Shown here one piece after another: positions 4,900-49,956 of a stretch of 59,833 nucleotides of DNA (position 1 is the stretch's first letter; every line of letters begins with the position of its first letter). The notes below the pieces were generated by a model. That model did not search any database. It was not told where the DNA came from and worked only from the letters and a program-made list of their open reading frames with translations. The stretch is from a virus. A program made the translations under genes and the position numbers. Location of the stretch: the IMG/VR virus record IMGVR_UViG_3300020185_000003. One strand, written 5' to 3'.

Positions 4900-7331
4900 A
4901 AGATGTTAAGATAAATATCACATCTGCAGGCTTCCCGAGTCAGTTTGTTTCAGACAAAGAAAAGGCTACGGAAGAATTCGGTTTACAGATTGGGCAAGCC
5001 ATTCAGTATGAGTGGTTTAGAAAAGATGGTAACGGGTGCAGATACTATGGTCAATGGAGAGACTTCCATAGACTTAGATTGTATGCTCGTGGAGAACAAT
5101 CAGTAGCAAAATACAAAAACGAATTAGCCGTTGATGGAGATTTATCTTATTTGAATATAGATTGGACTCCTGTTCCTGTTATACCAAAGTTTATTGACAT
5201 CGTTGTAAATGGAATGTCTGATAGACTTTTCAAAGTAAAGGCATACGCACAAGATGCTATGTCTCAAGAAAAAAGAAGTGCTTATCAAGATATGATTGAA
5301 GGACAGATGGTTGCTAAACCAATCCTTCAGACTATTATGGATAAAACAGGAGCCAATCCTTTTGTTACTGAACCTGAAGAACTTCCTAATAATGACGAAG
5401 AGTTAGCATTGTATATGCAACTCAACTACAAACCTGCAATTGAAATTGCGGAAGAGACTGCAATCAACACGATTTTTGATGCCAATCATTACGATGATAT
5501 CAGAAAACAACTTGATTATGATATGACTGTACTTGGTGTTGCTATGGCTAAACACGAATTTCTAAAAGGAGATGGTGTCAAGTTGTCGTATGTAGACCCT
5601 GCAAATGTGGTGTATAGTTACACAGAAAGCCCTTACTTCAAAGATTGTTTCTATTGGGGTGAGATTAAGACGGTTCCTATTATTGACCTAAAAAAAATTG
5701 ACCCATCACTAACCAATGAAGACTTAGAAGAGATATCTAAGTACAGTCAAAGTTGGTGGGACTATTTTAATGTAGCACAGTTTTATCAGAACGATATTTT
5801 CTATAGAGACACCGCTACGTTGATGTACTTCAACTATAAGACCACAAAAGAAATCGTATATAAGAAGAAGGTTTCTGATTCGGGTAATGTAAAAATGGTA
5901 GAGAAGGATGATTCATTCAACCCTCCTACCGAAATGATGCAAGAAGGAAACTTTGAAAGAGTTTCAAAAACTATTGACGTTTGGTATGAGGGTGTTATGG
6001 TTATGGGAACCAACTTCCTTTTAAAATGGGAGATGTCAAAGAATATGGTTCGACCTAAGTCTGCGACACAACACGCTATGCCTAATTACGTAGCCTGTGC
6101 TCCAAGAATGTATAAGGGTGTTATAGAATCGTTGACACGAAGAATGATTCCGTTTGCAGACTTAATTCAAATTACGCACTTAAAACTGCAACAAGTTATT
6201 TCTCGTGTGGTCCCTGATGGTGTCTTTATTGATGCTGACGGTCTAAACGAGGTGGACCTTGGTACAGGTCAAGCATATAATCCTGAAGACGCACTGAGAT
6301 TATACTTCCAAACGGGTAGTGTAATCGGTAGAAGTTTTACTCAGGACGGTGACTATAACAATGCAAGGGTTCCAATTACTCAACTAACTGCTAACTCAGG
6401 TGCTGCTAAAACACAAATGCTACTTGGAAACTATAACCACTATCTGAATCAAATCAGACAGGTTACAGGATTGAATGAAGCAAGAGATGCAAGTATGCCT
6501 GACCCTAACTCTTTGGTTGGTCTACAGAAGTTGGCTGCGTTAAACTCTAACACTGCTACACGACATATTCTTGATTCAAGTCTGTATATGTATAGAACAA
6601 TGGCTGAGTGTTTAACTTATAGAGTTGCAGATATTCTTGAGTACTCTGATTTTAGAGAAGAGTTTACTAATCAAATTGGTAAATACAACATTAATATCTT
6701 ACATAGTATTAATGACCTCTATATTTATGACTTTGGCATTTTTATTGAAGTCGCTCCTGATGAAGAGCAAAGAGCACAACTTGAGCAGAACATTCAAATG
6801 GCATTATCTAAGGGAGACATTAATCTCGAAGATGCTATTGATATCAGGGAGATTAAAAACATCAAACTTGCTAATCAATTACTGAAGGCTAAGCGTAAGG
6901 CTAAGCAAGACAGAGAAGAGAAAATGCAAATGCAGCAACAAGCAATGCAGCAGCAGGCTCAGGTTCAATCACAACAGATGGCTTCTGAAATGTCTATGCA
7001 AAAGTCTCAGATGGAACTTCAAGGTAAGATACAATTGAAGCAGGCTGAGATTGCTTTTGATATTGAGAAAATGAAGAACGAGGCTATGCTTAAATCTCAA
7101 TTAATGCAACAGGAGTTCGATTTGAATATGCAGTTAAAAGGAATTGAGGTTCAGGGATTAGCCCAAAGAGAAAAAGAAAGAGAGAAAGCGAAGGCTGATA
7201 GAATTGGTATTCAAAATACTCAGCAATCCAAATTGATAAACCAAAGGAAAAATAATTTACCTCCTTTGAACTTTGAATCTAATGAAGATAGTTTAGATGG
7301 CTTTGATTTTGCGGAATTTAACCCACGATAA
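4896..7331 (+). CDS. portal protein (probable)
   Basis: 811 aa, ATGA overlap with the terminase gene, followed by scaffold and capsid genes, with a Q-rich coiled-coil C-terminus. The call rests on size and synteny. Confidence 0.65.
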   Translation: MKDVKINITSAGFPSQFVSDKEKATEEFGLQIGQAIQYEWFRKDGNGCRYYGQWRDFHRLRLYARGEQSVAKYKNELAVDGDLSYLNIDWTPVPVIPKFIDIVVNGMSDRLFKVKAYAQDAMSQEKRSAYQDMIEGQMVAKPILQTIMDKTGANPFVTEPEELPNNDEELALYMQLNYKPAIEIAEETAINTIFDANHYDDIRKQLDYDMTVLGVAMAKHEFLKGDGVKLSYVDPANVVYSYTESPYFKDCFYWGEIKTVPIIDLKKIDPSLTNEDLEEISKYSQSWWDYFNVAQFYQNDIFYRDTATLMYFNYKTTKEIVYKKKVSDSGNVKMVEKDDSFNPPTEMMQEGNFERVSKTIDVWYEGVMVMGTNFLLKWEMSKNMVRPKSATQHAMPNYVACAPRMYKGVIESLTRRMIPFADLIQITHLKLQQVISRVVPDGVFIDADGLNEVDLGTGQAYNPEDALRLYFQTGSVIGRSFTQDGDYNNARVPITQLTANSGAAKTQMLLGNYNHYLNQIRQVTGLNEARDASMPDPNSLVGLQKLAALNSNTATRHILDSSLYMYRTMAECLTYRVADILEYSDFREEFTNQIGKYNINILHSINDLYIYDFGIFIEVAPDEEQRAQLEQNIQMALSKGDINLEDAIDIREIKNIKLANQLLKAKRKAKQDREEKMQMQQQAMQQQAQVQSQQMASEMSMQKSQMELQGKIQLKQAEIAFDIEKMKNEAMLKSQLMQQEFDLNMQLKGIEVQGLAQREKEREKAKADRIGIQNTQQSKLINQRKNNLPPLNFESNEDSLDGFDFAEFNPR

Positions 7332-7359
7332 ACGGTCTAAAACTATAACAATTTTTGAT

Positions 7360-7367
7360 TAACTTTG
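7360..7367 (+). promoter_or_regulatory. Bacteroidota-type -7 promoter box (TAACTTTG)
   Basis: Matches TAnnTTTG and lies 20 nt upstream of ATG 7388. Confidence 0.5.
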
Positions 7368-7387
7368 TAACTTAAATTAAATCTAAT

Positions 7388-8497
7388 ATGGAATTTACAG
7401 TAAAATCAGTAGGCGAAGCGAAAGAGAAATCGGTTCAAGAAGTAGAACAAGAACTGCTTGAAAAGCACGAGTCCTCTTTAAACGAGCCTAAAATAAAAGA
7501 AGAAGTAAACCCACAGGTTGACAATTCGCAAGAAGATGTAAACCTACAGGTTGACAAAGCAGAACCCTCAGAGTTAAGTGAGGAAGACGTTCTTTCATTT
7601 ATAGGAAAAAAATACGGTAAGCAAATTAATTCCCTTGAGGAGTTGACCCGTGAAAGAGAAGAGTCAGAACCTCTTCCTGAAGACGTGGCTGCTTACTTTA
7701 AGTATAAAAAAGAAACAGGAAGAAACATTGAAGACTTTATTAAACTTAATAGAGACCTTGATGAAGTAAATCCTGATAAGTTGCTTCGTGATTATCTTAC
7801 CGAGACAGAGAAAGGTCTTGACGAGGAGGATATTCAATCTTTAATGGAAGACTATTCATATGACGAAGAGTTAGATGATGAGTCAACTATTAAGAAAACG
7901 AAGTTGGCTAAAAAGAAAATGGTCGCAAAAGCCAAAGAGTATTTTGAATCCCAAAAGGAAAAATACAGAATCCCTGCAGAGTCTGCAGGTAGTTCTATTT
8001 CCAAAGAAGATTCAGAAGCCTTGGAGGATTATAGACAATATGTTCAAGAGTCAGTGTCATTAAGTGAGCAACTCCAAAAACGAGAGCAGTGGTTTAAAGA
8101 CAAGACAGGTGAAGTATTCGGTAGTGAGTTCAAAGGTTTTGAGTTTGCGTTAGACGATAAAAAACTTGTTTATGTTCCCGGAGATGGACAGGAAATGTTG
8201 AAAGTACATCAAGACCCTACAAACTTTACGAGAAAGTTTATTGGGGAGGATGGTCTTCTAACAGACCCTGTTGGTTATCACAAAGCATTGGCGGTTGCAA
8301 TGAATCCTGAAAAATTTGCTAAGTTCTTTTATGAGCAAGGCAAGTCGGAGGCGGTTGATGATGTTATGAGAAAGACAAAAAATATTGATATGTCTACTCG
8401 TAATGTCCCACAAAACCTCAACACAGGAGGAACAACCATTCGAGCAGTAAGCCAAGACTCAGGTCGAGGTTTACGAATTAAAAGTAACAAAAACTAA
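7388..8497 (+). CDS. scaffolding protein (probable)
   Basis: 369 aa, very acidic and E/K-rich, located between the portal and major capsid genes. Confidence 0.55.
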   Translation: MEFTVKSVGEAKEKSVQEVEQELLEKHESSLNEPKIKEEVNPQVDNSQEDVNLQVDKAEPSELSEEDVLSFIGKKYGKQINSLEELTREREESEPLPEDVAAYFKYKKETGRNIEDFIKLNRDLDEVNPDKLLRDYLTETEKGLDEEDIQSLMEDYSYDEELDDESTIKKTKLAKKKMVAKAKEYFESQKEKYRIPAESAGSSISKEDSEALEDYRQYVQESVSLSEQLQKREQWFKDKTGEVFGSEFKGFEFALDDKKLVYVPGDGQEMLKVHQDPTNFTRKFIGEDGLLTDPVGYHKALAVAMNPEKFAKFFYEQGKSEAVDDVMRKTKNIDMSTRNVPQNLNTGGTTIRAVSQDSGRGLRIKSNKN

Positions 8498-8515
8498 AAC
8501 TAAAAAACAAAAAAA

Positions 8516-9949
8516 ATGGCAGTTCAATCCGTTCCGGGATATCAGTTGCAGCCGAGTGCACAACAGGTCCCTTTAAAATCAAACTACATTACCAACTTTG
8601 ATTTCTTGAATCAGTATCTTCCTGATACCTATGAGAAAGAATTCGAGCGTTACGGTAATCGTACAGTTGCATCTTTCCTACGTATGGTAGGAGCAGAGAT
8701 GCCTTCTAATTCTGACCTTATCAAATGGGCAGAGCAAGGTCGTCTTCATACTAAGTATGTTGATTGTACCACTACAGTTCTTGCAGGTTCTGCAGTAGCA
8801 ACTTTCACTGTTAATGATGTCTTGATTCCTGCATTTGTAAATGCTGCTTCAGGTTCTATCGCTATCCGTGTAGGGCAGACGCTTATGATTACCGCTAATG
8901 CAGGTGGTGCAAACCACAAAGCAATCGTTACTGCAGTTGATACTGCTCTTAAAACGTTTGACGTAGCGTTCTACGATGCTGCAGGTATCACTAATGCTTC
9001 TGCTGCTGACAAGTGGACAGTATTTATCTATGGTTCTGAATTCAAAAAAGGAACTAATGGAATGATTGGTTCTTTGGAGTCTGACGATGAAATCTTCGAG
9101 AACTCTCCTATCATCATCAAAGACAAGTACGCAGTATCAGGTTCTGATATGGCTCAAATCGGATGGGTAGAAGTAACCACTGAGAATGGTGCTTCAGGTT
9201 ACCTTTGGTATTTGAAGTCAGAGCACGAGACTCGTCTTCGTTTTGATGACTACTTGGAGACTTCTATGATTGAAGCAGTTCCTGCTGAAACAGGTTCAGG
9301 TGCAGCATCTGCAGCCGGAGACGTTGGTAACAAAGGTTCACAAGGTATCTTCTACGTTGTTAACTTGCGTGGTAACGTATGGGGCGGTGGTTATCCTGTA
9401 ACTCTTGCCGACTTTGATACTATCGTATCTCGTTTGGACAAGCAAGGTTCTATCGAAGAGAACGTAATCTTTGTTGACAGAAACTTTAGTTTCTCTATTG
9501 ACGATATGTTGGCTGCTCAAAACTCTTACGGTGCGGGTGGTTCTTCTTATGGTCTTTTTGAAAACGATAAGGATATGGCTCTTAACTTGGGCTTCACCGG
9601 ATTCCGTAGAGGTTATGATTTCTACAAGTCTGATTGGAAATACTTGAACGACCCAACTATGCGTGGAGGTCTTCCTTCTGTTGCAGGTTCAGGTAAAGTA
9701 AGCGGTTTGTTGGTTCCTGCGGGTTCTACTACTGTATATGACCAAATCCTTGGTAAGAACGCTAAGCGTCCTTTCCTACACGTGCGTTACCGTGCTTCAG
9801 AAACTGAAGACAGACGTTACAAAACTTGGATTACAGGTTCTGCAGGTGGTGCTGAAACTTCTGACCTTGACGCAATGGAGGTTAACTTCTTGTCTGAAAG
9901 AGCAGTATGTACTTTAGGTGCTAACAACTTCTTCTTGTTCCAAAACTAA
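8516..9949 (+). CDS. major capsid protein (probable)
   Basis: 477 aa. The position after the scaffold gene, strongly biased codon use and a strong terminator immediately downstream support the call. Confidence 0.7.
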   Translation: MAVQSVPGYQLQPSAQQVPLKSNYITNFDFLNQYLPDTYEKEFERYGNRTVASFLRMVGAEMPSNSDLIKWAEQGRLHTKYVDCTTTVLAGSAVATFTVNDVLIPAFVNAASGSIAIRVGQTLMITANAGGANHKAIVTAVDTALKTFDVAFYDAAGITNASAADKWTVFIYGSEFKKGTNGMIGSLESDDEIFENSPIIIKDKYAVSGSDMAQIGWVEVTTENGASGYLWYLKSEHETRLRFDDYLETSMIEAVPAETGSGAASAAGDVGNKGSQGIFYVVNLRGNVWGGGYPVTLADFDTIVSRLDKQGSIEENVIFVDRNFSFSIDDMLAAQNSYGAGGSSYGLFENDKDMALNLGFTGFRRGYDFYKSDWKYLNDPTMRGGLPSVAGSGKVSGLLVPAGSTTVYDQILGKNAKRPFLHVRYRASETEDRRYKTWITGSAGGAETSDLDAMEVNFLSERAVCTLGANNFFLFQN

Positions 9950-9964
9950 GAGGAAAACAAAATC

Positions 9965-9999
9965 GGGGGGGTGTCTTCAAAGACACTCTCCCTTTTTTT
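9965..9999 (+). terminator. rho-independent terminator built on PAL16 copy B
   Basis: GGGGGG-GTGTCTTCAAAGACAC-TCTCCC extended stem followed by T7, 16 nt after the capsid stop. Confidence 0.8.
9971..9986. repeat. PAL16 copy B (GTGTCTTCAAAGACAC, exact)
   Basis: Intergenic; forms the apex of the capsid terminator. Confidence 0.95.
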
Positions 10000-10037
10000 C
10001 TTAATAAATCTAATTCTAATTCTAATTATATCTAAAA

Positions 10038-10784
10038 ATGAAAAACAAAGTAAACGTAGCAACCGATAAGGTCTACAAACTCGTAAAAGATTCGGCTCCA
10101 TTGTCTTATATGCTGCCGACACGACACACTGCACAATTCCCTTTATTGTATTTTGATGAAGAAGCCGGGGTAAACCGTGCCCTTCGTTATGCACGAAACC
10201 AAAAATCACCTTTCGAGGATGAGCAAGATGGGAACGTGGTATTGGAACCAATCATCTTTGAAGATGGATTCCTTAGTGTTCCAAGAACAAATCCTGTACT
10301 CCAACAATTCCTTTTCTACCATCCATCTAATGGTATGGCATTTCAAGAGGTTAACGAGGAACGTGATGCAACTGCTGAAGTCGACAGACTTAATGCTGAG
10401 GTTGATGCGTTACTTGCAGCCCGTGACTTGAAAGTAGAACAAGTTGAAATGATTTCACGAGTACTATTCAATAGAGATGTTACTAAGATTTCGACATCTG
10501 AATTACGCAGAGATATATTGGTTTATGCTAAGAATCGACCTGCTGAATTTCTTGATATCGTTAATGACCCTACATTAAAATTACAAGCAACCGTTTCCTT
10601 GTTATTTGAAAAAGGCTTTTTAGCATTTAGAAAAAACCAAAAAGAAGTTTGGTTTAACACAAACACAAATAAAACCAAGATGCTAAATGTCCCTTATGGA
10701 GAAGACCCAATGTTTATTGTTTCGTCTTTTCTACAGTCGGACGAGGGCATAGAAAACTATAAATTACTTGAGAAACTCTTGTAA
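10038..10784 (+). CDS. hypothetical head/connector-module protein
   Basis: 248-aa ORF between two terminators. No motif was recognised. Confidence 0.65.
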   Translation: MKNKVNVATDKVYKLVKDSAPLSYMLPTRHTAQFPLLYFDEEAGVNRALRYARNQKSPFEDEQDGNVVLEPIIFEDGFLSVPRTNPVLQQFLFYHPSNGMAFQEVNEERDATAEVDRLNAEVDALLAARDLKVEQVEMISRVLFNRDVTKISTSELRRDILVYAKNRPAEFLDIVNDPTLKLQATVSLLFEKGFLAFRKNQKEVWFNTNTNKTKMLNVPYGEDPMFIVSSFLQSDEGIENYKLLEKLL

Positions 10785-10791
10785 CCCTAAG

Positions 10792-10825
10792 ACCCCTTCC
10801 CGAAAAGAAGGGGTTCTTTTTTTTT
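10792..10825 (+). terminator. rho-independent terminator
   Basis: ACCCCTTC-CCGAAAA-GAAGGGGT hairpin followed by a T9 run. Confidence 0.8.
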
Positions 10826-10827
10826 AT

Positions 10828-10835
10828 TATCTTTG
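10828..10835 (+). promoter_or_regulatory. -7 promoter box, TTATCTTTGTAAAA family
   Basis: TATCTTTG lies 15 nt upstream of ATG 10851. Confidence 0.65.
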
Positions 10836-10850
10836 TAAAAAGGTTTACAG

Positions 10851-11834
10851 ATGATTAACTCAGTTAGAAACACGGTTCTGTCTGTACTGAATAAAAATAA
10901 TTACGGATATATTTCGCCTTCTGATTTCAATTTATTTGCAAAGCAGGCACAGTTAGATTTATTTGAGACTTATTTCTATCAGTACAATTATCAGATAAAT
11001 AAAGAAAATGCCCGCCAATCAGGTACGGGCTATGCCGACATTAGAAAGGCAATGGAGGAGTTGATTGAGGTATTCTCTGTTTACAATCCATTATCAAGAA
11101 CTACTGTACCACCAACGGTATCAAATATATACAGTCTTCCATCACCTACAACTACAGGAGATGATTACTATTTATTGAATAAAGTATTAGTGTTCCCTGA
11201 AATAGTTACAAGCGGAACAACTACAGGTACTGTAGGTAGTGGTCAAAACATTATAGATTCTAACGCTACATTTATTACTGATAGTGTTTCGGCAGGAGAT
11301 GTTGTTGGATTTGTTAGCAGTGGAATCACTCAATACGTAACTGTTATTAGCGTAAACAGTCAGACAAGTATTACGACTACACAAAGTGTTGTGTCTTCGA
11401 ACCCTTGGAATGCAATCGGAATTTCTTATGTAATCTACGATTCAAAACAAGAAGAGGCTGAGAAGGTATCTCATAGTAAAATAACTATGTTAAACAACTC
11501 GCTTTTAACTAAACCGAATTTAACCTTCCCTGCTTATACGCAAGAAGGCAATACGTTGTTTGCTTACCCTAATACCATTACCAATGTAGGGCAGGTATCA
11601 TCTCAGTACATCAGGTATCCCAAAGACCCTAAGTGGACATTTATCACTTTGGTTAGTGGAGAACCTGCATTTGACCAATCACAACCTGATTATCAGGATT
11701 TTGAATTGCCACTTGATTGTGAATCTGATTTGATTAATAAGATACTTCAGTACGCAGGTATGTCTATACGTGAGATTGCTGCGGTTCAGTTTGGACAGGG
11801 TCTTGAACAAATGGATAACCAACAACAACAATAA
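10851..11834 (+). CDS. hypothetical structural protein
   Basis: 327-aa ORF in the late module. Confidence 0.7.
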   Translation: MINSVRNTVLSVLNKNNYGYISPSDFNLFAKQAQLDLFETYFYQYNYQINKENARQSGTGYADIRKAMEELIEVFSVYNPLSRTTVPPTVSNIYSLPSPTTTGDDYYLLNKVLVFPEIVTSGTTTGTVGSGQNIIDSNATFITDSVSAGDVVGFVSSGITQYVTVISVNSQTSITTTQSVVSSNPWNAIGISYVIYDSKQEEAEKVSHSKITMLNNSLLTKPNLTFPAYTQEGNTLFAYPNTITNVGQVSSQYIRYPKDPKWTFITLVSGEPAFDQSQPDYQDFELPLDCESDLINKILQYAGMSIREIAAVQFGQGLEQMDNQQQQ

Positions 11835-42681: not shown

Positions 42682-43761
42682 TTAGTTAAACAATGCTACT
42701 TCGTTATCTGTGAACCAACCGCCACACGCACTGCAGTGGTAGTGGTTAAACCCATCGTACTCCAAGTCAGAGAAACAATCAATGCAGGATGGCTTCTCTA
42801 CATAAACCTCTTCCCTCTCATTAAAGACCTCATCGAAATAAGAAAGTTGTGTGCATTCTTTTTGTGTCTTTGAAGACACTGTCTTGGACTTGGATAGTGT
42901 AAAAGATTTTGGAATGGGCTTCTGAAGAAATGTCTTGTGCATTACCTCCCCACTTCTGATTTGTTTTGGGTTAAAGTATATCCACGCAGTAACTTCTTTA
43001 CCCTGTATGACAACCTGAATCTGCTCACGCTTGTACCATCTCGGATGACCCTCAAGGATATCTAACTTCGCTAAGGTAGAGTCACTTACTTTGAATACGT
43101 CTACCGCCACGTTGTGTCCCACTCCCTTTTGATTTACCAAGAAAGGTAAACCGTTAACGATTAACGGATACTTATCCTTAGTCTTGCCTGAGCCAACAAA
43201 GTCAGAGTTGTAAAGGTGACCGTAGTAGTTGCTATAACCTTTCTTCAATGTTCCGTACACTGCAACCACGTTGTCAAGTAGGACGTTGTCTTTTGAGAAC
43301 CACACGCCATCTCTGTTGGTGTACAGGTGACGATTGTATATCTGATACGATTTGGTCTTGGTGTTGACGCTAACAAACCTGCACTCATACTTCTCAAGTT
43401 CAGTTTTCCATTGGTCTCTTGGCATATCACCTAACATCTCAGCAAGTACCTTGCTATCTGTCTTGTTGTCGTTGCCCAACCCTTTGATGGTTCCGTTCAT
43501 CATCAGCAGTTCGTCTGTGTTCTTACCGCACACAAATGGATGTGTGTTCGCTCGGTTAATCTTACCGACAGTTGCGTATCTGAAATGCGCAATGTATGGT
43601 CGGTCAGTTAATAGTTTCTTGTACTCTTTAGAGTCGTGATAGGTTACCTCAAAGGTGTCCAACCAAACAATGCCCAACCCATCAGGATTGACAGTTGATG
43701 ATTTCTTTAGGACTTCTTGCGATACCTTGCGACCTCTTTGTTTAATGATGATTACACACAT
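42682..43761 (-). CDS. fusion protein: class-II (Ntn, Cys2) glutamine-amidotransferase-like amidohydrolase + AIG2/GGACT-like gamma-glutamyl(amine) cyclotransferase + C-terminal Zn-ribbon
   Basis: N-terminus: MCVIII..NPDGLGIVW..AHFRYATVGKINRANTHPFV..LMMNGTI (YafJ/EgtC-like pattern with the Cys2 nucleophile). Middle: VAVYGTLKKGYSNY...LDILEGHPRWYKRE (AIG2/GGCT pattern). C-terminus: CIDCFSDLEYDGFNHYHCSACGGWF. Confidence 0.75.
   Translation of the reverse strand: MCVIIIKQRGRKVSQEVLKKSSTVNPDGLGIVWLDTFEVTYHDSKEYKKLLTDRPYIAHFRYATVGKINRANTHPFVCGKNTDELLMMNGTIKGLGNDNKTDSKVLAEMLGDMPRDQWKTELEKYECRFVSVNTKTKSYQIYNRHLYTNRDGVWFSKDNVLLDNVVAVYGTLKKGYSNYYGHLYNSDFVGSGKTKDKYPLIVNGLPFLVNQKGVGHNVAVDVFKVSDSTLAKLDILEGHPRWYKREQIQVVIQGKEVTAWIYFNPKQIRSGEVMHKTFLQKPIPKSFTLSKSKTVSSKTQKECTQLSYFDEVFNEREEVYVEKPSCIDCFSDLEYDGFNHYHCSACGGWFTDNEVALFN
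42864..42879. repeat. PAL16 copy H (GTGTCTTTGAAGACAC, exact)
   Basis: Lies inside the GATase-GGCT CDS linker; the sense strand reads T-VSSKT-Q. Confidence 0.95.
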
Positions 43762-43789
43762 AATGATTATATTTTGTTTAATTATTGTA

Positions 43790-43797
43790 CAAAGATA
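43790..43797 (-). promoter_or_regulatory. -7 promoter box (sense AACTATCTTTGTAC)
   Basis: The complement is TATCTTTG, 28 nt upstream of ATG 43761. Confidence 0.6.
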
Positions 43798-43803
43798 GTT
43801 TAA

Positions 43804-44316
43804 TTATTTTAGACTACCAAATTTATTTTTTACTCGTTCCCAATACACTTCAGTTGATTGCTTCTTGTGACCTCGTCCTCCGCCATTCCATTTACGGGCA
43901 ACCACCTCAAAGAATTCTTCCTGAGTCAATCCCTCGCAACACTCAACCTGCTCCGCCATAATCTCAAACATCTCGATAGACTTTTCTCTGTTCCATCTGT
44001 CGTCCAAGGTGTATCGGAATGGGGCGTTCCACTTTTTTAGTTTGCGGTTAACCTCACGCACCATAATAGGACGTATCTGTAGGCAACCTGCCGCTTTCTC
44101 TTTTTCGTTGTATGCAGAATCATTCCCGCTACTCTCTACTTGGATTACTGCTTCAACAAATAATTCCCAATCGGTTTGTGTCTTTGAAGACACAATCTCG
44201 GGTGAGATTGTATCTTCTATAACACATTGTTCTGAATCTGTAGTTGGCTTGTCGTATGATGCAAACCCAAGCACGGATACCGTGACTACTCCTGCTAAAA
44301 TTTTAATCTGTCTCAT
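43804..44316 (-). CDS. lytic transglycosylase (SLT domain) with an N-terminal membrane anchor/signal
   Basis: MRQIKILAGVVTVSVLGF...; AVIQVESSGNDSAYNEKEKAAGCLQIRP matches the E-S..N...G.(L)MQI pattern. Confidence 0.7.
   Translation of the reverse strand: MRQIKILAGVVTVSVLGFASYDKPTTDSEQCVIEDTISPEIVSSKTQTDWELFVEAVIQVESSGNDSAYNEKEKAAGCLQIRPIMVREVNRKLKKWNAPFRYTLDDRWNREKSIEMFEIMAEQVECCEGLTQEEFFEVVARKWNGGGRGHKKQSTEVYWERVKNKFGSLK
44178..44193. repeat. PAL16 copy I (GTGTCTTTGAAGACAC, exact)
   Basis: Lies inside the SLT CDS; the sense strand reads I-VSSKT-Q. Confidence 0.95.
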
Positions 44317-44317
44317 C

Positions 44318-44644
44318 TTAAATAGTTGTTTGTGTTATATACTTCTGTGCTTGTGTCTTACTGACAAAGTATAGTTTGTTCTTATCAAATAATTCCTCGC
44401 TTATGTCATCCCAACAAGACATCACTACCTCGTTGTTTTCTATCGTGTAGTACGTGTCTCCCTCATTGAATGGGAATCCTGAATCGTACCAACACTCGTC
44501 AAGGAGATATCCCTTGGTTCGGTGCATATGCGCAATAAAATTGTCGCAGTGGCGTAGGTCGTTGAACTCTTTTGTTAGTGTCCATAAACTCTTTCCTTTA
44601 TAGGATGGTTTACAGGTTTCGAATTGTAGTGTTACTTTATACAT
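44318..44644 (-). CDS. hypothetical protein
   Basis: 108-aa ORF. Confidence 0.6.
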   Translation of the reverse strand: MYKVTLQFETCKPSYKGKSLWTLTKEFNDLRHCDNFIAHMHRTKGYLLDECWYDSGFPFNEGDTYYTIENNEVVMSCWDDISEELFDKNKLYFVSKTQAQKYITQTTI

Positions 44645-44655
44645 AATGATTTAAT

Positions 44656-44817
44656 TTATCGTGTTAATACTGCGGTTAATTTCTGACGTACTATCCAAGG
44701 ATACCTTGATATGTTGTCGTTGAACACTCGGTCAATGGCTTCCCATTTTGAATGTGCAGAGATATTGCAGATATCTTTACCTGCATATCTCACCTTGTAG
44801 TACTGCTTACTTTCCAT
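44656..44817 (-). CDS. small hypothetical protein (53 aa)
   Basis: Hand-translated as MESKQYYKVRYAGKDICNISAHSKWEAIDRVFNDNISRYPWIVRQKLTAVLTR. It fills an otherwise empty 160-nt gap, and its start overlaps the upstream stop by 11 nt. Confidence 0.5.
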   Translation of the reverse strand: MESKQYYKVRYAGKDICNISAHSKWEAIDRVFNDNISRYPWIVRQKLTAVLTR

Positions 44818-45001
44818 CTTTTGCGAACATTAGAACTCCTGCTAAATACAACAGGGTTAAGGTGAACAAACTCACAATACACGTTGAAATAAAATGTGGT
44901 ACGGAACTTACGTCTTGGAATAACGCCAAGATGAAACGACCTGCGTTGAATGTTACTACTGCCAACATTAACGCCATTAAAACTTTGCTTACTTTTTTCA
45001 T
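44807..45001 (-). CDS. small two-TM membrane protein
   Basis: 64 aa with two hydrophobic helices (VLMALMLAVVTF, IVSLFTLTLLYLAGVLMF). It is the first gene downstream of the hammerhead. Confidence 0.6.
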   Translation of the reverse strand: MKKVSKVLMALMLAVVTFNAGRFILALFQDVSSVPHFISTCIVSLFTLTLLYLAGVLMFAKDGK

Positions 45002-45022
45002 TTTGATTTTATTTTATTAGTT

Positions 45023-45075
45023 TCCTGTTTCGTCCTTTGGGACTCATCAGCACAGGCACTCACCTGTGGACAGGA
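45023..45075 (-). ncRNA. hammerhead self-cleaving ribozyme, stem III open (type III)
   Basis: The minus RNA reads UCCUGUC|CACAGG-UGAGUG-CCUGUG-CUGAUGA-GUCC-CAAA-GGAC-GAA-ACAGGA. The complete invariant core is present, along with a GUC cleavage triplet, the A15.1:U16.1 and G10.1:C11.1 pairs, and three perfectly paired stems. Confidence 0.85.
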
Positions 45076-45080
45076 GGATA

Positions 45081-45096
45081 GTGTCCTTGAAGACAC
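45081..45096. repeat. PAL16 copy J (GTGTCCTTGAAGACAC, one mismatch; sense strand same variant as copy D)
   Basis: Intergenic. The stem extends to 12 bp (45076..45101) and directly abuts the hammerhead. Confidence 0.9.
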
Positions 45097-45109
45097 TACC
45101 CTGCTTTTT

Positions 45110-46024
45110 TTAATATCTCCTTGGCGCAGGAGTCTCGGTGAATCCTAACCACCCTTTGATATCCTCGGTCACCTTGCCTGTCTTGATATACTTTTGGAAT
45201 GATACTGCCAAGGTCATTATCTCGTTCACCTTGTCTTGGTTTCTGTCGTACATCGCCATCAGGATTGGTTCTGCCTTCTTCAAGAAAGTCTTGAAATTTC
45301 CGTTTGGATTGTTTACGCTGAAATCAACCAATTCATACATCATCTCGTATCTGCGCATCATCTGTTTTACTGATTGGAATCGGGCAGGAAGACGAAATTC
45401 AATCACGCTACCTTTGTTTAAGCATACGTGATACTTGTTTGAATTGCCTACAGGTAATCCTGCCCAATCTTCTCTATTCTCCTGCATACGGATATTGAAA
45501 CGGCAGTAAGGATTTTGCAATCTGTGACGATACATTGCGTACAGGATGCCTGAATTTTTGCGTACTAAATTCATCAATTCACTACCATCCATCCCTTCTA
45601 CGGCAAGAGAAATGTGTCCGCCACATCGCTTGTCTGATGGGCTATTGGCATCCTCAATAATTCTCTTTGCTTTGTGCATCATATCGTAGACCTTGTTGCG
45701 CCATACTGATGCAGGTAGCAAAGGTAGGATGTTGGTCACTGCTTCGTATCCGCAAGAACCATCACGCTCAAATCCGCAAAGCAATTCGTATTCTCTTACT
45801 GCTCCACGAGATAATTGGTTTTTCTCAATCTCCATTCCGATTGTGAAACGTGAATTGAAATCCGAACCTACCTGCACCAAATTGCGCTTATCAGAATTTT
45901 TCAATTGGGCAATGTCCGAAGATTTTGCACCTTTCTGCATCTCACGAAATTCAGGTTTTCTGTGGTAGTGTTGAACTACTGCTCTGTCTGAGCGATTTTC
46001 GATTTTGTAGATGATACCTTCCAT
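45110..46024 (-). CDS. amidoligase (glutamine-synthetase-like fold, Amidoligase_2-type)
   Basis: TIGMEIEKN, GFERDGSCGYEAVTNILP, CGGHISLAVEG, NPYCRFN and GSVIEFRLPA follow the family motif order as I recall it. Confidence 0.7.
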   Translation of the reverse strand: MEGIIYKIENRSDRAVVQHYHRKPEFREMQKGAKSSDIAQLKNSDKRNLVQVGSDFNSRFTIGMEIEKNQLSRGAVREYELLCGFERDGSCGYEAVTNILPLLPASVWRNKVYDMMHKAKRIIEDANSPSDKRCGGHISLAVEGMDGSELMNLVRKNSGILYAMYRHRLQNPYCRFNIRMQENREDWAGLPVGNSNKYHVCLNKGSVIEFRLPARFQSVKQMMRRYEMMYELVDFSVNNPNGNFKTFLKKAEPILMAMYDRNQDKVNEIMTLAVSFQKYIKTGKVTEDIKGWLGFTETPAPRRY

Positions 46025-46057
46025 TTTATTTAATTTTAGTGTTTATGATTTTTTTAG

Positions 46058-46103
46058 TGGGCAGTAAGGATTCGAACCTTATGTGTCACCGACTGACCTA
46101 CCC
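46058..46103 (-). ncRNA. tRNA-like element (acceptor stem + D-like arm + T arm, no anticodon arm)
   Basis: The minus RNA reads GGGUAG-GUC-AGUCGGU-GAC-ACA-UAAGG-UUCGAAU-CCUUA-CUGCCC-A. It has a 6-bp acceptor stem (one G.U pair), a canonical T arm and loop, and a D-like loop with GG. Confidence 0.6.
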
Positions 46104-46124: not shown

Positions 46125-46769
46125 TTACATTCCCATTGATGATTGAAGAAACGCAATTGCTTGAGCAATTTCTGAAGCATCGTTTCGGGTAATCAATTCG
46201 CCATTGGCATTGATGCGGACTGCAATGTTTCGTCCTTCGGGATTCTTCATTGACATTGTGAAGATTGTCTCAACACGTTCCTGTACTTCTGCTGACTCAA
46301 TTGCTTCCTCAGAAATCTCCTCTTCTCCTGTCTCCTCGTTGATGATTGTTTCAACGTCATTGAAATCCTGTGCGAATTTCAACAGACCTGCTAAACTTCT
46401 GTCAACGTCTTTGCCTTGGGCATCTGCTTCGTCACATTTGGTATTGAATGCATCGACAATTTGCTCTGACAATTTCCCTGCTTTAAGTACTTTGTAGAAG
46501 AAAGACTTCTGCCATCCGAAGACCTTTTGACCGAATTCCTCTTTGCTCCACGATAATCCTGCATCCTGCATTTTGAATTTACCTTCCTCAGAAGTGAACC
46601 ATTGTTCTGCTTTTACGACCAATTTTGCCATATTCAAAGTATGACCGAATTTGCTCTTGTGAGCATTGGTAATTTGTCTTTGAATGCGTTTGATGTCATT
46701 CAAGTTTAATGCATTCTTGATTTCTGATTGTGAAAGGAATGCCGTTTCGATTGATAAAAGATTGCTCAT
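46125..46769 (-). CDS. hypothetical early protein (first gene of the leftward block)
   Basis: 214-aa ORF. No motif was recognised. Confidence 0.65.
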   Translation of the reverse strand: MSNLLSIETAFLSQSEIKNALNLNDIKRIQRQITNAHKSKFGHTLNMAKLVVKAEQWFTSEEGKFKMQDAGLSWSKEEFGQKVFGWQKSFFYKVLKAGKLSEQIVDAFNTKCDEADAQGKDVDRSLAGLLKFAQDFNDVETIINEETGEEEISEEAIESAEVQERVETIFTMSMKNPEGRNIAVRINANGELITRNDASEIAQAIAFLQSSMGM

Positions 46770-46850: not shown

Positions 46851-46858
46851 CAAATATA
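46851..46858 (-). promoter_or_regulatory. -7 promoter box (sense ACTATATTTGAAC), probable leftward early promoter
   Basis: The complement is TATATTTG, 81 nt upstream of ATG 46769. Confidence 0.55.
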
Positions 46859-46979: not shown

Positions 46980-46995
46980 TTTTGTTTTGATTGTG

Positions 46996-47035
46996 GACAG
47001 GAACGCACACAGGAAGACAGGAACGCACACAGGAA
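46996..47035. repeat. perfect tandem 20-mer x2 (GACAGGAACGCACACAGGAA)
   Basis: 46996..47015 equals 47016..47035. Confidence 0.95.
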
Positions 47036-47036
47036 C

Positions 47037-47054
47037 GAATGCTTTGCCGCATTC
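47037..47054. repeat. inverted repeat GAATGC-TTTGCC-GCATTC
   Basis: Read directly from the sequence. Confidence 0.7.
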
Positions 47055-47080
47055 ATTCTCTGTTGCTCTTTGATTGCGTA

Positions 47081-47189
47081 CGGGAACGGGAACGGGGACA
47101 GGCGGAACGGGAACGGGAACAGGGGAACAGGGGACACAGGACGCAGGACGGATGCAGGCAGGACGCAGGACGCAGGCAGGCAGGTAGGT
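47081..47189. repeat. GC-rich, almost T-free tract of degenerate short tandem repeats (CGGGAA, CAGGGGAA, CGCAGGA, CAGG) with many G3-4 runs
   Basis: Only two T in about 109 nt of the plus strand. The composition contrasts sharply with the AT-rich genome. Confidence 0.9.
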
Positions 47190-47236
47190 GCTACAGGAAA
47201 TCGCCAAAAAATCCGACAGGGGACGGCAAAACTGCA

Positions 47237-47245
47237 CCCCCCCCC
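47237..47245. repeat. C9 homopolymer
   Basis: Read directly from the sequence. Confidence 0.9.
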
Positions 47246-47758: not shown

Positions 47759-47759
47759 G

Positions 47760-47833
47760 TACTCCCTATAGGATTCGAACCTATAACCTATACATTAGAA
47801 GTGTATTGCACTATCCTATTGTGCTAAGGGAGT
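47760..47833 (-). tRNA. tRNA-Arg: tRNA-Arg (anticodon UCU)
   Basis: The complement folds as a canonical 74-nt cloverleaf: acceptor ACTCCCT/AGGGAGT, D arm GCAC-AATAGGATA-GTGC, anticodon arm ATACA-CTTCTAA-TGTAT, variable AGGTT, T arm ATAGG-TTCGAAT-CCTAT, discriminator A. CCA is not encoded. Confidence 0.9.
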
Positions 47834-48113: not shown

Positions 48114-49715
48114 ATGTCTGAATTAGGATTCACTCCAAAGAACCTCACCTTTGATGACAAGGGTAGAAAAAAATTATTTAAAGGGATAGAGGCTATTGCC
48201 TCAGCAGTAAAGTCAACTCTCGGACCTTCCGGTCAGACGGTTCTTATCGAATCACCACATCACACGCACGGCATCACAGTAACCAAGGACGGTGTTACGG
48301 TTGCCAAGGCGGTAGACCTATTAGACCCTGTCGAGAACCTTGCGGTTCGGATGATGAAGGAAGCGGCAGACCGCACGGCATCGCAAGCAGGTGATGGAAC
48401 GACCACGGCTATTGTACTTACAGAGGCTATTGTAAAAGCAGGATTTGAGGACATCGTTGATGGTGTAAATAAAACTCAAGTACTAAGAGACCTTGTTACG
48501 GAAACCAATAAGGTAGTTAAGTCACTAAAAAAACATTCACGCAAAGTGTCAGGGCGCACCCTTCGGGATGTAGCCATCATCTCAACAAACAACGACCCGC
48601 AACTCGGAACAACAATTGCTAACGTATACAACCGTGTTGGTAAGAATGGTATAGTTACCATCTCCAAGTCTCAAACATCAGACACTTACTTTGAGACAAC
48701 AAATGGATTGAAAGTAGAACGAGGATATACCTCACCACTATTCATCAACGACCATAAGAAAGATGAGTGTGTCTTTGAAGACACTTACATCCTTGTGAGT
48801 GATGCAGAGATTAGCAACCTACTATCTATCGAGAACGTATTGAAACCAATCATTAATGACGGCAAGAAGTTGCTTGTCATTGCACCGTGTTCTCAAAACG
48901 TAATCAACACATTGGCTGCTAACGTAATGAAAAACAATCTAAAGTTCTGTGCTATCACTCCGCCAAACTTCGGATATAAACAACACGAACTAATGCAAGA
49001 CATTGCTCTTGCGGTTGGGGCTACCTACTTCTCCGAGAAGACAGGAGACGACCTCAGCATTATGACATTCGATGACTTGGGTCACGCTGCCAAGGTGATA
49101 GTTGGTCGTGACTCTACCGTCATCGTTAAAGACTCAGATGAAATATCTGAACAAGTTAAAGAGCGAGTAGAGCAATTGTGGGATGCCCACGCTAACACTC
49201 CAAAGAAAGTAGACAAGGAATTTATCTTGTCAAGAATCGCCTCCCTCACAGGGGGAGTTGGGGTTATCTATGTAGGTGGCAACACAGACCTTGAGCAGAA
49301 GGAATTGTATGACCGTGTCGATGATGCGGTGTGTGCAGTTCGCTCAGCACTCGAAGAAGGTATCCTACCGGGGGGAGGCATCGCATTATTTAAGGAATCG
49401 TTGGTAGGGTTTTTTGACCAACCTGACGAGGAGAACATTGCTCGAAAGATATTGTTCAAAGCACTACGTGCTCCTCTTATGCAAATTTGGCATAATGCAG
49501 GTATTGAGGAAAGTAAAGACGGGCTTGAGTCTCACTACGATTTTGGATACAATGTCAAAACACAGGAGTGGGGAGATATGTATAAGATGGGAGTTATCGA
49601 CCCATTGAAGGTTACCAAGTCTGCTCTTCAGAATGCAGTGTCTGTTGCGGTAACTATTCTTTCGACTAATGCTATCATAACAATGGCTCGAACTTATGAG
49701 GACCAAAATTCTTGA
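48114..49715 (+). CDS. groL: GroEL-type chaperonin (Cpn60)
   Basis: 533 aa with TLGPSGQTVLIE, VTKDGVTVAK, AGDGTTTAIVL, GYTSPLFIN and ILPGGGIAL. It is collinear with bacterial GroEL. The C-terminus lacks the GGM tail. Confidence 0.9.
   Translation: MSELGFTPKNLTFDDKGRKKLFKGIEAIASAVKSTLGPSGQTVLIESPHHTHGITVTKDGVTVAKAVDLLDPVENLAVRMMKEAADRTASQAGDGTTTAIVLTEAIVKAGFEDIVDGVNKTQVLRDLVTETNKVVKSLKKHSRKVSGRTLRDVAIISTNNDPQLGTTIANVYNRVGKNGIVTISKSQTSDTYFETTNGLKVERGYTSPLFINDHKKDECVFEDTYILVSDAEISNLLSIENVLKPIINDGKKLLVIAPCSQNVINTLAANVMKNNLKFCAITPPNFGYKQHELMQDIALAVGATYFSEKTGDDLSIMTFDDLGHAAKVIVGRDSTVIVKDSDEISEQVKERVEQLWDAHANTPKKVDKEFILSRIASLTGGVGVIYVGGNTDLEQKELYDRVDDAVCAVRSALEEGILPGGGIALFKESLVGFFDQPDEENIARKILFKALRAPLMQIWHNAGIEESKDGLESHYDFGYNVKTQEWGDMYKMGVIDPLKVTKSALQNAVSVAVTILSTNAIITMARTYEDQNS
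48769..48784. repeat. PAL16 copy M (GTGTCTTTGAAGACAC, exact)
   Basis: Lies inside the GroEL CDS and is read as C-VFEDT-Y, at the position equivalent to E. coli GAVELESPF. Confidence 0.95.
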
Positions 49716-49956
49716 TATAATCCTTAACAACTATCCTGAAGAAGGATTCCTCAAAGCAGATGGCTTTGATGATGCTATCATTGGTATTAATAGCAAAGGG
49801 AACAAACTTGTTTACTCAGTTAGCAAGTGTCTCAATATCCTTATGAAGGAGGGGATGGATTTTGAAGATGCATATGAACACTTCTACTACAATATAGAAG
49901 CAGCATATGTTGGAGAGAATACGCCTATATGGGTAAACGACATATTTGAACTTTAA
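49696..49956 (+). CDS. hypothetical protein
   Basis: 86-aa ORF between groEL and groES. It overlaps the groEL end by 20 nt. Confidence 0.6.
   Translation: MRTKILDIILNNYPEEGFLKADGFDDAIIGINSKGNKLVYSVSKCLNILMKEGMDFEDAYEHFYYNIEAAYVGENTPIWVNDIFEL

Follow-up and report, generated by a model that had tools for sequence, protein, structure and literature searches.

The subject of this analysis is a pair of genes in the 59,833-nt record IMGVR_UViG_3300020185_000003, the ~60-kb genome of an uncultured phage; the whole of this record is referred to below as the window. Both genes lie on the minus strand. One of them (45110..46024) encodes a 304-aa protein, a divergent Amidoligase_2-like carboxylate-amine ligase of predicted glutamine-synthetase (GS) fold, and the other (42682..43761) encodes a 359-aa fusion protein consisting of a Cys2 N-terminal nucleophile (Ntn) amidohydrolase domain, a gamma-glutamylamine cyclotransferase (GGACT) domain and a putative zinc ribbon. 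The reading adopted here is that the ligase and the fusion form one functional module, which belongs to the early leftward operon of a lytic Bacteroidota podovirus and would make and remove a gamma-glutamyl-amine in the cytoplasm; the chances of this reading being right are judged to be about even. The original prediction had placed the two open reading frames (ORFs) at these positions, and both were recovered exactly there, together with every motif that it had quoted.

Linkage of the ligase and fusion genes

The linkage was surveyed in 80 IMG/VR loci encoding the ligase at 48-59% identity. A full-length fusion gene is located downstream, on the same strand, in 67 of the 80 loci, at a distance of 870-4616 bp (median 1884); twelve of the thirteen remaining loci are cut by the contig end within 2.6 kb, and L089 alone is truly without the fusion. 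Both genes are on the same strand in 67 of the 68 evaluable viral contigs, and close relatives (88% identity) keep the layout of the window.

The association extends to distant homologues of the ligase (25-38% identity), which carry long N-terminal extensions; in each case a gene for a Cys2-Ntn/GGACT/zinc-ribbon protein follows immediately downstream, and one such pair, with its genes 57 bp apart, resides on a contig with lambda-type terminase and portal genes. The two genes are also adjacent in Manatee Spring podovirus MW202828. In phage C75C1 (OQ984151), a true Amidoligase_2 (106 bits, E 3.5e-30) is followed, after a few small ORFs, by an Ntn-GGACT fusion that lacks the zinc ribbon cysteines. 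Co-inheritance of the two genes across related phages, as had been predicted, is thus evident from the evaluable contigs as well as from the distant adjacent pairs.

At 7010-10891, the exceptional locus L089 encodes a second amidoligase paralogue (402 aa), then a Cys2-Ntn protein that has multiple CxxC ribbons but lacks GGACT, and, after a 96-aa ORF, a RadC-type JAB protein (PF04002, E 4.5e-36); next come the amidoligase orthologue and, last, an HNH endonuclease. The second paralogue, supported by a hhalign probability of 98%, lies upstream of the ligase orthologue.

Domains of the fusion protein

The homologues of the fusion protein form 885 clusters in a 90%-identity collection, which shows that the gene is not a chance ORF. 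Its division into three parts, namely a Cys2 Ntn amidohydrolase, a GGACT domain and a putative zinc ribbon, is confirmed by motifs, alignments and the predicted structure. The motifs MCVIII (residues 1-6), NPDGLG (25-30), HFRYATVG (59-66), NTHPF (72-76) and MNGTI (88-92) fall in the first part, YGTLKKG (169-175) and LDILEGHPRWYKR (233-245) in the second, and the CxxC pairs at 326/329 and 343/346 in the third. In the AlphaFold model (predicted local distance difference test, pLDDT, 79), two domains are folded, residues 283-322 are disordered and the C-terminus forms a small beta unit. Conservation was assessed in 32 aligned homologues with identities as low as 41% and in a second set, the partners of the distant ligases, down to 28%. 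The Ntn-GGACT-zinc-ribbon fusion is rare among deposited phage records (2 of 50,697, both of metagenomic origin), yet metagenome clusters with it number in the hundreds. No signal peptide or membrane segment was found in the fusion or in the 304-aa protein.

Residues 1-160 (43282..43761, minus strand) constitute the class-II (Ntn) amidotransferase-like amidohydrolase domain. In such domains, Cys2 becomes the N-terminal nucleophile after the removal of Met1; the first possible start codon of the ORF gives Met-Cys, and a Met-Cys start is present in every aligned homologue of the fusion, including those at 28-30% identity. Residues M1, C2, R61, N72, H74, P75, N89, G90 and D102 show no variation among homologues, whether close or distant. 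The profile of the first 160 residues matches the YafJ-like protein 3mdn (E 6.9e-6), GFAT-1 (1.9e-5), PurF, GlmS and 1te5, with the HxRxATxG, NxHP, NG and D positions aligned, and a Foldseek search of the domain matches the glutaminase domain of GFAT-1 (E 7e-6). In GlmS, an Arg and an Asp reportedly bind the alpha-carboxylate and the alpha-amino group of the glutamyl substrate; R61 and D102 of the fusion align with these two residues, and N89-G90 with the oxyanion hole. The Pfam models GATase_4 and GATase_6 remain sub-threshold on residues 45-114 (19.4 bits against cut-offs of 23 and 27, respectively), and PF13230 is carried by several fusion orthologues of 56-68% identity in a precomputed table. 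The best sequence matches are standalone YafJ-like proteins (3mdn, 1te5) and not synthase-coupled domains, in agreement with the earlier assignment of this part to the YafJ-like kind of Cys2 class-II amidotransferase.

Residues 164-266 (42964..43272, minus strand) constitute the GGACT/AIG2-type gamma-glutamyl(amine) cyclotransferase domain. It is matched by PF06094 with 79.1 bits against a cut-off of 22.8 (E 5.1e-22, residues 166-266) and by phrog_2520 (E 1.3e-21), and its profile aligns with mouse and human GGACT at E 1.3e-13 and 25-28% identity. Residue E237, in the LEGHP motif, aligns with the catalytic Glu of FES/FED in the human and mouse enzymes, which in the human protein is presumably the residue mutated in the E82Q entry 3jud. 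The modelled domain superimposes on 1vkb (mouse) and 3juc (human) in Foldseek with E 1e-9, a template modelling (TM) score of 0.71 and a root-mean-square deviation of 2.2 Å, and Y169, G170, T171, L172, E237, Y243 and R245 are invariant. The presence of a GGACT domain in the fusion, also part of the original prediction, is thereby upheld at the level of family, fold and catalytic residue.

A linker at residues 283-322 (42796..42915, minus strand), predicted to be disordered (pLDDT <50) and unconserved in length and sequence in the alignment of homologues, precedes the CxxC-x13-CxxC zinc ribbon, which occupies residues 324-359 and the stop codon (42682..42792, minus strand). Cysteines C326, C329, C343 and C346 are invariant in 30 orthologues, as expected of the zinc ribbon that had been proposed, and are kept in the distant loci L009, L010 and L001. 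Short strands are predicted at 332-351 (pLDDT 67-79), and no Pfam model matches the putative ribbon. It is present in 7 of 7 lineages with the divergent ligase and absent in one lineage with a canonical Amidoligase_2 (phage C75C1). Both usual partners of Amidoligase_2, the GATase-like thiol enzyme and the AIG2-like cyclotransferase, are thus fused in one polypeptide, as the earlier reader had remarked.

The amidoligase-like protein

The 304-aa protein comprises a core at about residues 55-240 followed by a predicted helical C-terminal domain. Its homologues form 692 clusters in the 90%-identity collection, which likewise speaks against a chance ORF, and an exhaustive profile search finds 757 clusters of the family at 50% identity. 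The motifs GMEIE (63-67), DGSCGYE (88-94), CGGHISL (134-140), NPYC (171-174) and IEFR (208-211) had led to its assignment to Amidoligase_2, with a hmmscan search of Pfam proposed as the check. That search gave no match, even at E<=10, and none was obtained in PHROGs, NCBIfam or PADLOC; sequence searches of the PDB, with the single sequence and with a profile, returned chance-level matches only. Amidoligase_2 (PF12224) is matched by 0 of 43 diverse members of the 304-aa family at E<=0.01, the C75C1 amidoligase serving as a positive control in the same test with its 106 bits.

The relationship emerges when profile is compared with profile, hhalign comparisons against single canonical sequences being too weak to decide. 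The profile of the 304-aa family matches that of the relatives of the C75C1 amidoligase with 94.9% probability (E 4e-8), and a more diverse profile of the family matches canonical Amidoligase_2 with 97.7% probability (E 1.4e-12) over 176 columns; the probability for COOH-NH2_lig, the second GS-like ligase family of phage cassettes, is only 3-8%. In 43 diverse relatives, down to 25% identity, the residues G63, E65, E67, D88, S90, C91, G92, E94, C134, H137, R168, E209 and R211 are invariant, and the metal and phosphate motifs are thereby conserved throughout. Residues G63, E65, E67, D88, S90, E94, H137, R168, E209 and R211 align with G32, E34, E36, D77, S79, E87, H123, R158-159, E202 and R204 of canonical Amidoligase_2, and these aligned residues are the ones invariant in both families (GxExE, D-S...E, G-H, R, ExR). 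The catalytic residues named beforehand, that is Cys2 and E237 of the fusion and the acidic residues of the ligase, are accordingly found to be invariant in homologues.

The AlphaFold2 model of the 304-aa protein has a pLDDT of 84 and a pTM of 0.86, and all 50 of its top fold matches in the PDB are GS, GmaS, YbdK, Dop, PafA or GCL. Matches in BFVD beyond its own family are nearly all phage proteins named 'amidoligase enzyme' (E 1e-6 to 1e-4). Among the distant amidoligase-like proteins, 52 (P0121-P0269) carry N-terminal extensions of at least 100 aa, with lengths of 100-470 aa; 38 of these 52 extensions belong to one acidic, aromatic-rich cluster, for which no Pfam domain was found. Because the profile-profile match, the fold and the conserved motifs agree, the 304-aa protein is treated as a divergent sister clade of Amidoligase_2 and not as a Pfam-defined member, so that the earlier assignment holds on these three grounds and fails in the Pfam search.

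Proposed mechanism and alternative explanations

Every GS-fold ligase characterised so far activates, to our knowledge, the gamma-carboxylate of glutamate. By this rule, the simplest reading has the ligase forming a gamma-glutamyl-amine that the fusion then removes. The cycle of tagging and untagging an amine suggested in the original prediction is, as chemistry, reasonable. The Ntn and GGACT families share the chemistry of breaking a gamma-glutamyl amide that has a free alpha-amino group and a free alpha-carboxylate. The ligase would use ATP to activate a carboxylate as an acyl phosphate, which would then be joined to an amine; by analogy with GS, GmaS, PuuA, GCL and PafA, this would be the gamma-carboxylate of glutamate, and the product a gamma-glutamyl-amine. 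The fusion would act as a cytoplasmic 'eraser' with two chemistries for the same bond. Its Ntn domain, with Cys1 as the nucleophile, would convert gamma-Glu-NH-X to Glu and X-NH2 via a thioester, and its GGACT domain would convert gamma-Glu-NH-X to 5-oxoproline and X-NH2, while the zinc ribbon on its flexible linker probably docks the fusion to a partner or to the target. A cytoplasmic location is suggested by the lack of signal peptides and membrane segments in both proteins and by the dependence of the ligase on ATP. Early in infection, the pair may attach a gamma-glutamyl group to a primary amine of some host molecule in the cytoplasm and take it off again (protection and deprotection), with a polyamine or a peptidoglycan precursor as the leading candidates. 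The analysis itself shows the domain identities, the conserved catalytic residues (an intact active site in the ligase and two in the fusion), the fold, the gene linkage and the operon position; the gamma-glutamyl nature of the product, the sharing of one conjugate by both genes and the identity of the amine are what we infer here.

Several points weigh against this reading. No biochemically characterised member of Amidoligase_2 or of the 304-aa clade was found in the literature searched. The PDB fold matches of the ligase are consistent but weak (TM ~0.3, best E 2.6e-4). Locus L089 has a ligase and an Ntn-zinc-ribbon protein without GGACT, which indicates that the cyclotransferase is not indispensable. 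Furthermore, a ligase whose product is broken down by two accompanying activities would seem to run a futile cycle unless timing, location or an intermediate step keeps them apart, and no such step is encoded in the module. Finally, the Ntn domain could be a true glutaminase feeding ammonia to the ligase.

This last point is the core of an alternative in which the Ntn glutaminase hydrolyses Gln and the released ammonia passes to the amidoligase, which amidates R-COOH to R-CONH2, for instance at the iso-glutamate of a peptidoglycan precursor in a MurT/GatD-like manner, with GGACT as a separate clean-up activity. The combination of a ligase with a glutaminase is common, the Ntn domain keeps all the glutamine-binding and catalytic residues of GlmS-/PurF-type glutaminase domains, and canonical phage cassettes have long GFAT-like glutamine amidotransferases (GATases) beside the amidoligase. 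However, the glutaminase is fused to GGACT and not to the ligase, an arrangement that this scheme leaves unexplained, and a separation of 0.9-4.6 kb between the genes, as in most relatives, is unusual for ammonia channelling. The affinity of the Ntn domain to standalone YafJ-like proteins, and not to synthase-coupled ones, points in the same direction, and the scheme is regarded as unlikely.

A role in peptidoglycan modification or superinfection exclusion, by which the enzymes would build or trim unusual stem-peptide linkages and alter the cell surface or the timing of lysis, is thought improbable to the same degree. It is the hypothesis put forward for the homologous cassette in PMC5498523, PMC6256558, PMC11945000 and PMC10580990, and the window has a gene for an SLT lytic transglycosylase in the interval that separates the pair. 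That hypothesis is nevertheless a bioinformatic one; the SLT gene is present in only 12 of the 80 relatives and absent from the distant adjacent pairs; and the ATP-grasp and COOH-NH2_lig enzymes of the canonical cassette are not among the 55 other ORFs of the window (60-900 aa), which were scanned with Pfam. As both enzymes are cytoplasmic, only precursors could be their targets. Moreover, the GGACT and Ntn domains need a glutamyl group with a free alpha-amino group, whereas the amino group of D-iso-Glu in stem peptides is acylated by L-Ala.

Still less weight is given to a Pup-like protein tagging, in which the ligase would place Glu or a Glu-ended peptide on lysines and the Ntn and GGACT domains would take the tag off again or salvage the epsilon-(gamma-glutamyl)lysine left over. 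The fold matches of the ligase include PafA and Dop, the zinc ribbon could dock proteins, and epsilon-(gamma-glutamyl)lysine is the known substrate of GGACT (Oakley 2010, as cited in 10.1101/2025.02.15.638363). Locus L089 additionally places a RadC-type JAB peptidase beside its second ligase/Ntn pair, but RadC-JAB genes are common in phages for unrelated reasons, and no small tag-like protein is conserved beside the pair. GGACT, besides, acts on free isopeptides and not on proteins.

The two genes might also be independent auxiliary metabolic genes, with the fusion serving glutamate, 5-oxoproline or nitrogen salvage, the ligase unrelated to it and the association a matter of synteny only. Such genes are treated as auxiliary metabolic genes in PMC10580990, and synteny alone could explain co-occurrence within a close phage group, where the neighbouring gene for a 214-aa protein is equally conserved (79 of 80 relatives). 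Yet on unrelated phage backbones, at 25-38% identity, the two genes are not only retained together but come to lie side by side, the fusion is paired with a canonical Amidoligase_2 in C75C1, and the same three domain families co-occur in many unrelated phages, which makes this explanation quite improbable. Hypermodification of DNA bases or nucleotides by glutamyl- or polyamine-type adducts, which the position of the module in an early, replication-side operon and the listing of a modified base precursor among the targets in the original prediction would favour, is rejected as very improbable, since the Pfam scan of the 55 other ORFs finds no hydroxymethylase, DNA glycosylase/transferase, kinase, methyltransferase or deazapurine gene as a partner and the known thymidine hypermodification pathways use other enzyme families.

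Operon structure and neighbouring genes

The first gene of the leftward operon (46125-46769, minus strand), directly upstream of the amidoligase gene, encodes the 214-aa protein, for which no match was found in any library. It was rejected as a part of the module, as the protein is unlike the N-terminal extensions of the distant ligases and has no family match. A promoter-like box, TATATTTG, at 46851..46858 (minus strand), 81 nt upstream of this gene, is likely to mark where the early leftward operon starts. The amidoligase-like gene, which belongs to this operon, is without a box of its own and is probably co-transcribed with the 214-aa gene. Another promoter-like box, TATCTTTG, at 43790..43797 (minus strand), lies 28 nt upstream of the ATG of the fusion gene. 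It is the box predicted at 43790, and it belongs to the TAnnTTTG type that is enriched upstream of window genes, a single match being weak evidence. The operon runs on into genes for Sak, a PD-(D/E)XK exonuclease, a primase-helicase and a helicase, which puts the ligase/fusion pair in the early, replication-side region.

The SLT lytic transglycosylase gene occupies 43804-44316 (minus strand); its domain is real, as PF01464 scores 25.3 bits against a cut-off of 21.3. The product has an N-terminal hydrophobic segment, either a signal or an anchor. A 108-aa ORF is found between the ligase and fusion genes in 12-13 of the 80 relatives. The original prediction had listed the SLT protein and small membrane proteins in the cluster of the toolkit, a part of it that did not survive: these ORFs were rejected as module members on account of their occurrence in 12-13 of 80 relatives and their absence from the distant pairs, in which ligase and fusion genes are directly adjacent. 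The SLT gene and the 108-aa ORF are passengers.

A candidate type III hammerhead ribozyme is located at 45022..45076 (minus strand), 34 nt after the stop codon of the amidoligase gene. The RF00008 model, searched over 1.2 kb, gives it 47.1 bits (E=6e-9) where the gathering score is 48.5, and no hammerhead was found at the Rfam gathering score in the whole window, so that the hammerhead reported earlier stands as a near-threshold match. Of 80 relatives, 55 have a hammerhead core on the sense strand in the interval from one gene to the other, and in 44 of these the core is no more than 200 nt from the end of the amidoligase gene; with 114 core matches in 1.34 Mb of related loci, the related phages seem to carry several hammerheads. 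The candidate is regarded as operon punctuation and not as a part of the enzymes.

The 16-nt palindrome GTGTCTTCAAAGACAC, named PAL16 in the original prediction, occurs at 14 sites in the genome against 0.04 expected (2856, 9971, 18855, 30944, 33124, 38460, 40676, 42864, 44178, 45081, 46106, 46964, 48769 and 56463). The palindrome is therefore real, and the cluster at 42.8-47.0 kb holds five copies rather than the three first counted. Some sites are intergenic and flank the amidoligase and 214-aa genes; others fall within the terminase, helicase, fusion, SLT and GroEL coding regions. In 64 of 80 relatives, the amidoligase gene is likewise flanked by a similar palindrome. The 16-nt element may serve as an operator, as a terminator hairpin or as a nuclease/methylase site. 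Between the 214-aa gene and the amidoligase gene, a tRNA T-arm-like element, GGTTCGAATCC, with flanking complementarity was observed at 46040-46100 (minus strand); ARAGORN and Rfam made no call in this interval, and the element may be a tRNA remnant or a processing signal.

Source phage and host

The host of the source phage is probably a marine or freshwater member of Bacteroidota. The large terminase of the phage shares 46% identity with its counterparts in podoviruses of Flavobacterium, Cellulophaga, Tenacibaculum and Maribacter, whose genomes are of ~60 kb; the cultured relatives do not carry the gene pair. The sequence TAnnTTTG is the Bacteroidota -7 promoter element, and 16 of 69 crudely called genes have such a box on the sense strand in the 120 nt preceding them, against 4.7 +/- 2.1 expected, while sigma-70-type promoter matches at 42.0-48.2 kb are rarer than in shuffled sequences (6 versus 16.3). 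This enrichment, the few sigma-70 matches and a crAss-type muzzle protein domain detected in the window by the Pfam scan together fit a Bacteroidota host.

The lytic look that had been noted is maintained, as there is no sign of lysogeny. No integrase was found in the Pfam scan of the 55 other ORFs, and the ligase family has a single match in 185,579 species genomes, on one 12-kb contig of a metagenome-assembled genome, a near-absence that fits a lytic lifestyle. The same scan revealed no methyltransferase, base-modification enzyme, ATP-grasp, COOH-NH2_lig or further amidoligase, and a megablast search of the 5-kb region against the 50,697 phage records gave no match.

Divergent from the leftward operon, the window encodes a GroEL-type chaperonin (Cpn60, E 1e-55) at 48114-49715 and 49696-49956 (both plus strand), and relatives additionally encode Cpn10. 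A tRNA-Arg gene (anticodon TCT) is located in the divergent intergenic region at 47759-47833 (minus strand). The long intergenic region upstream of the leftward operon contains, at 46980-47240, short G/C/T-rich repeats (cccgttcccgttcccg; gttcctgtgtgcgttcctgtcttcctgtgtgcgttcctgtcc), which yield spurious Pro/Val-rich ORFs on both strands.

Significance

The amidoligase/GATase/cyclotransferase cassette is among the most widespread early gene sets of phages without a demonstrated function, and it has been labelled 'peptidoglycan modification' for ~15 years (known since 2009) on bioinformatic grounds alone. The original prediction overstated the novelty of the present pair; what is new here is the reduction to two genes, the Ntn-GGACT-zinc-ribbon fusion and the recognition of a hidden ligase family. 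The two-gene version drops the extra ligases and leaves one ligation step and one bifunctional removal enzyme, which makes it the simplest system for finding the substrate. A family of more than 750 protein clusters now called 'hypothetical' is recognised as Amidoligase_2-like, and hundreds of proteins labelled just 'gamma-glutamyl cyclotransferase' prove to be three-domain proteins with a second catalytic domain.

A bolder extension of the module reading, which is possible though doubtful, is that the pair is a self-contained gamma-glutamylation writer and eraser for a host amine, serving very abundant uncultured aquatic Bacteroidota phages as an early host-takeover or anti-defence device. 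The ligase would then found a new enzyme family missed by annotation libraries, and the zinc ribbon would have co-evolved with this family and would dock the eraser onto the writer or a shared target. If the target were a polyamine, a cell-wall precursor or an immune component, a common host-takeover step of aquatic Bacteroidota phages would be explained. Assignment of the pair to a known defence or anti-defence family was considered and rejected, as no PADLOC match was found.

Comparison with known systems

The ligase resembles PF12224 Amidoligase_2 in a homologous core of ~175 columns with aligned acidic/His/Arg motifs, in its GS-like fold and in a neighbourhood with a GATase-like thiol enzyme and an AIG2 cyclotransferase, as seen in C75C1 and in the cassette phages. 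It differs in the invariants of its own family (DGSCG-E, CGGH), in the distinct helical C-terminal domain and in the 100-470-aa N-terminal extension of many members. The GGACT domain has the fold, the YGTLK motif and the catalytic Glu of human and mouse GGACT (3juc, 1vkb), to which it is likened by sequence and fold, but it is an internal domain of a three-part protein at 25-28% identity.

The Ntn domain shares with YafJ-like proteins (3mdn, 1te5) and EgtC the Cys1 nucleophile, the HxRxATxG, NxHP and NG motifs and the lack of a synthase domain. In ergothioneine synthesis, EgtC removes the gamma-glutamyl group added earlier by the GS-fold ligase EgtA, which is the same add-then-remove logic; the phage domain, however, is of ~160 rather than ~250 aa, is fused to GGACT, and has no pathway enzymes between ligation and removal. 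A gamma-glutamyl handle is likewise used by PuuA/PuuD (putrescine), GmaS (methylamine) and PafA/Dop (pupylation), and in butirosin synthesis (BtrJ/BtrG) an AIG2-type cyclotransferase removes the protective gamma-Glu. As proposed for the phage pair, they combine an ATP-dependent ligase that forms a gamma-glutamyl amide with a dedicated enzyme for its later removal; these pathways, in contrast, have steps acting on the glutamylated intermediate or a defined protein tag, none of which is encoded in the window, and we know of no handle pathway that fuses a hydrolase with a cyclotransferase.

The closest comparison is with the 'peptidoglycan modification' cassette of phiEco32-, LUZ24-, PaP3-, PA11-, RIO-1-, CW02- and PhiM6-like phages (Iyer et al. 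2009 and Hardies et al. 2013, as cited in PMC5498523, PMC6256558 and PMC11945000), which, according to PMC5498523, PMC3890496, PMC6256558, PMC11945000 and PMC10580990, also holds an ATP-grasp enzyme and a COOH-NH2 ligase. Five separate cassette genes were verified in KBNP1711 and CW02, and genes for the ATP-grasp enzyme and the COOH-NH2 ligase were found in KBNP1711, CW02 and UFV-P2. No experimental characterisation of the cassette, including any action on peptidoglycan, was found in the literature searched; parallel missense mutations in the amidoligase and the GATase, which arose during directed evolution of a Pseudomonas phage with the canonical cassette (PMC11450229), suggest an effect on phage fitness. 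Both systems link an Amidoligase_2-type ligase, a class-II GATase and an AIG2/GGCT protein, and do so in the early, replication-side part of lytic phage genomes, ahead of the primase/helicase genes. The canonical cassette has at least five separate genes, with a RimK-like ATP-grasp enzyme, a COOH-NH2 ligase, a GFAT-like GATase of 480-630 aa and a standalone GGCT of ~130 aa, whereas the window has only two, with neither ATP-grasp nor COOH-NH2_lig among its 55 other ORFs, a ligase too divergent for the Pfam model, and a GATase that is a 160-aa Ntn core fused to GGACT and the zinc ribbon. The pair is a minimal, fused version of the five-gene 'peptidoglycan modification' cassette.

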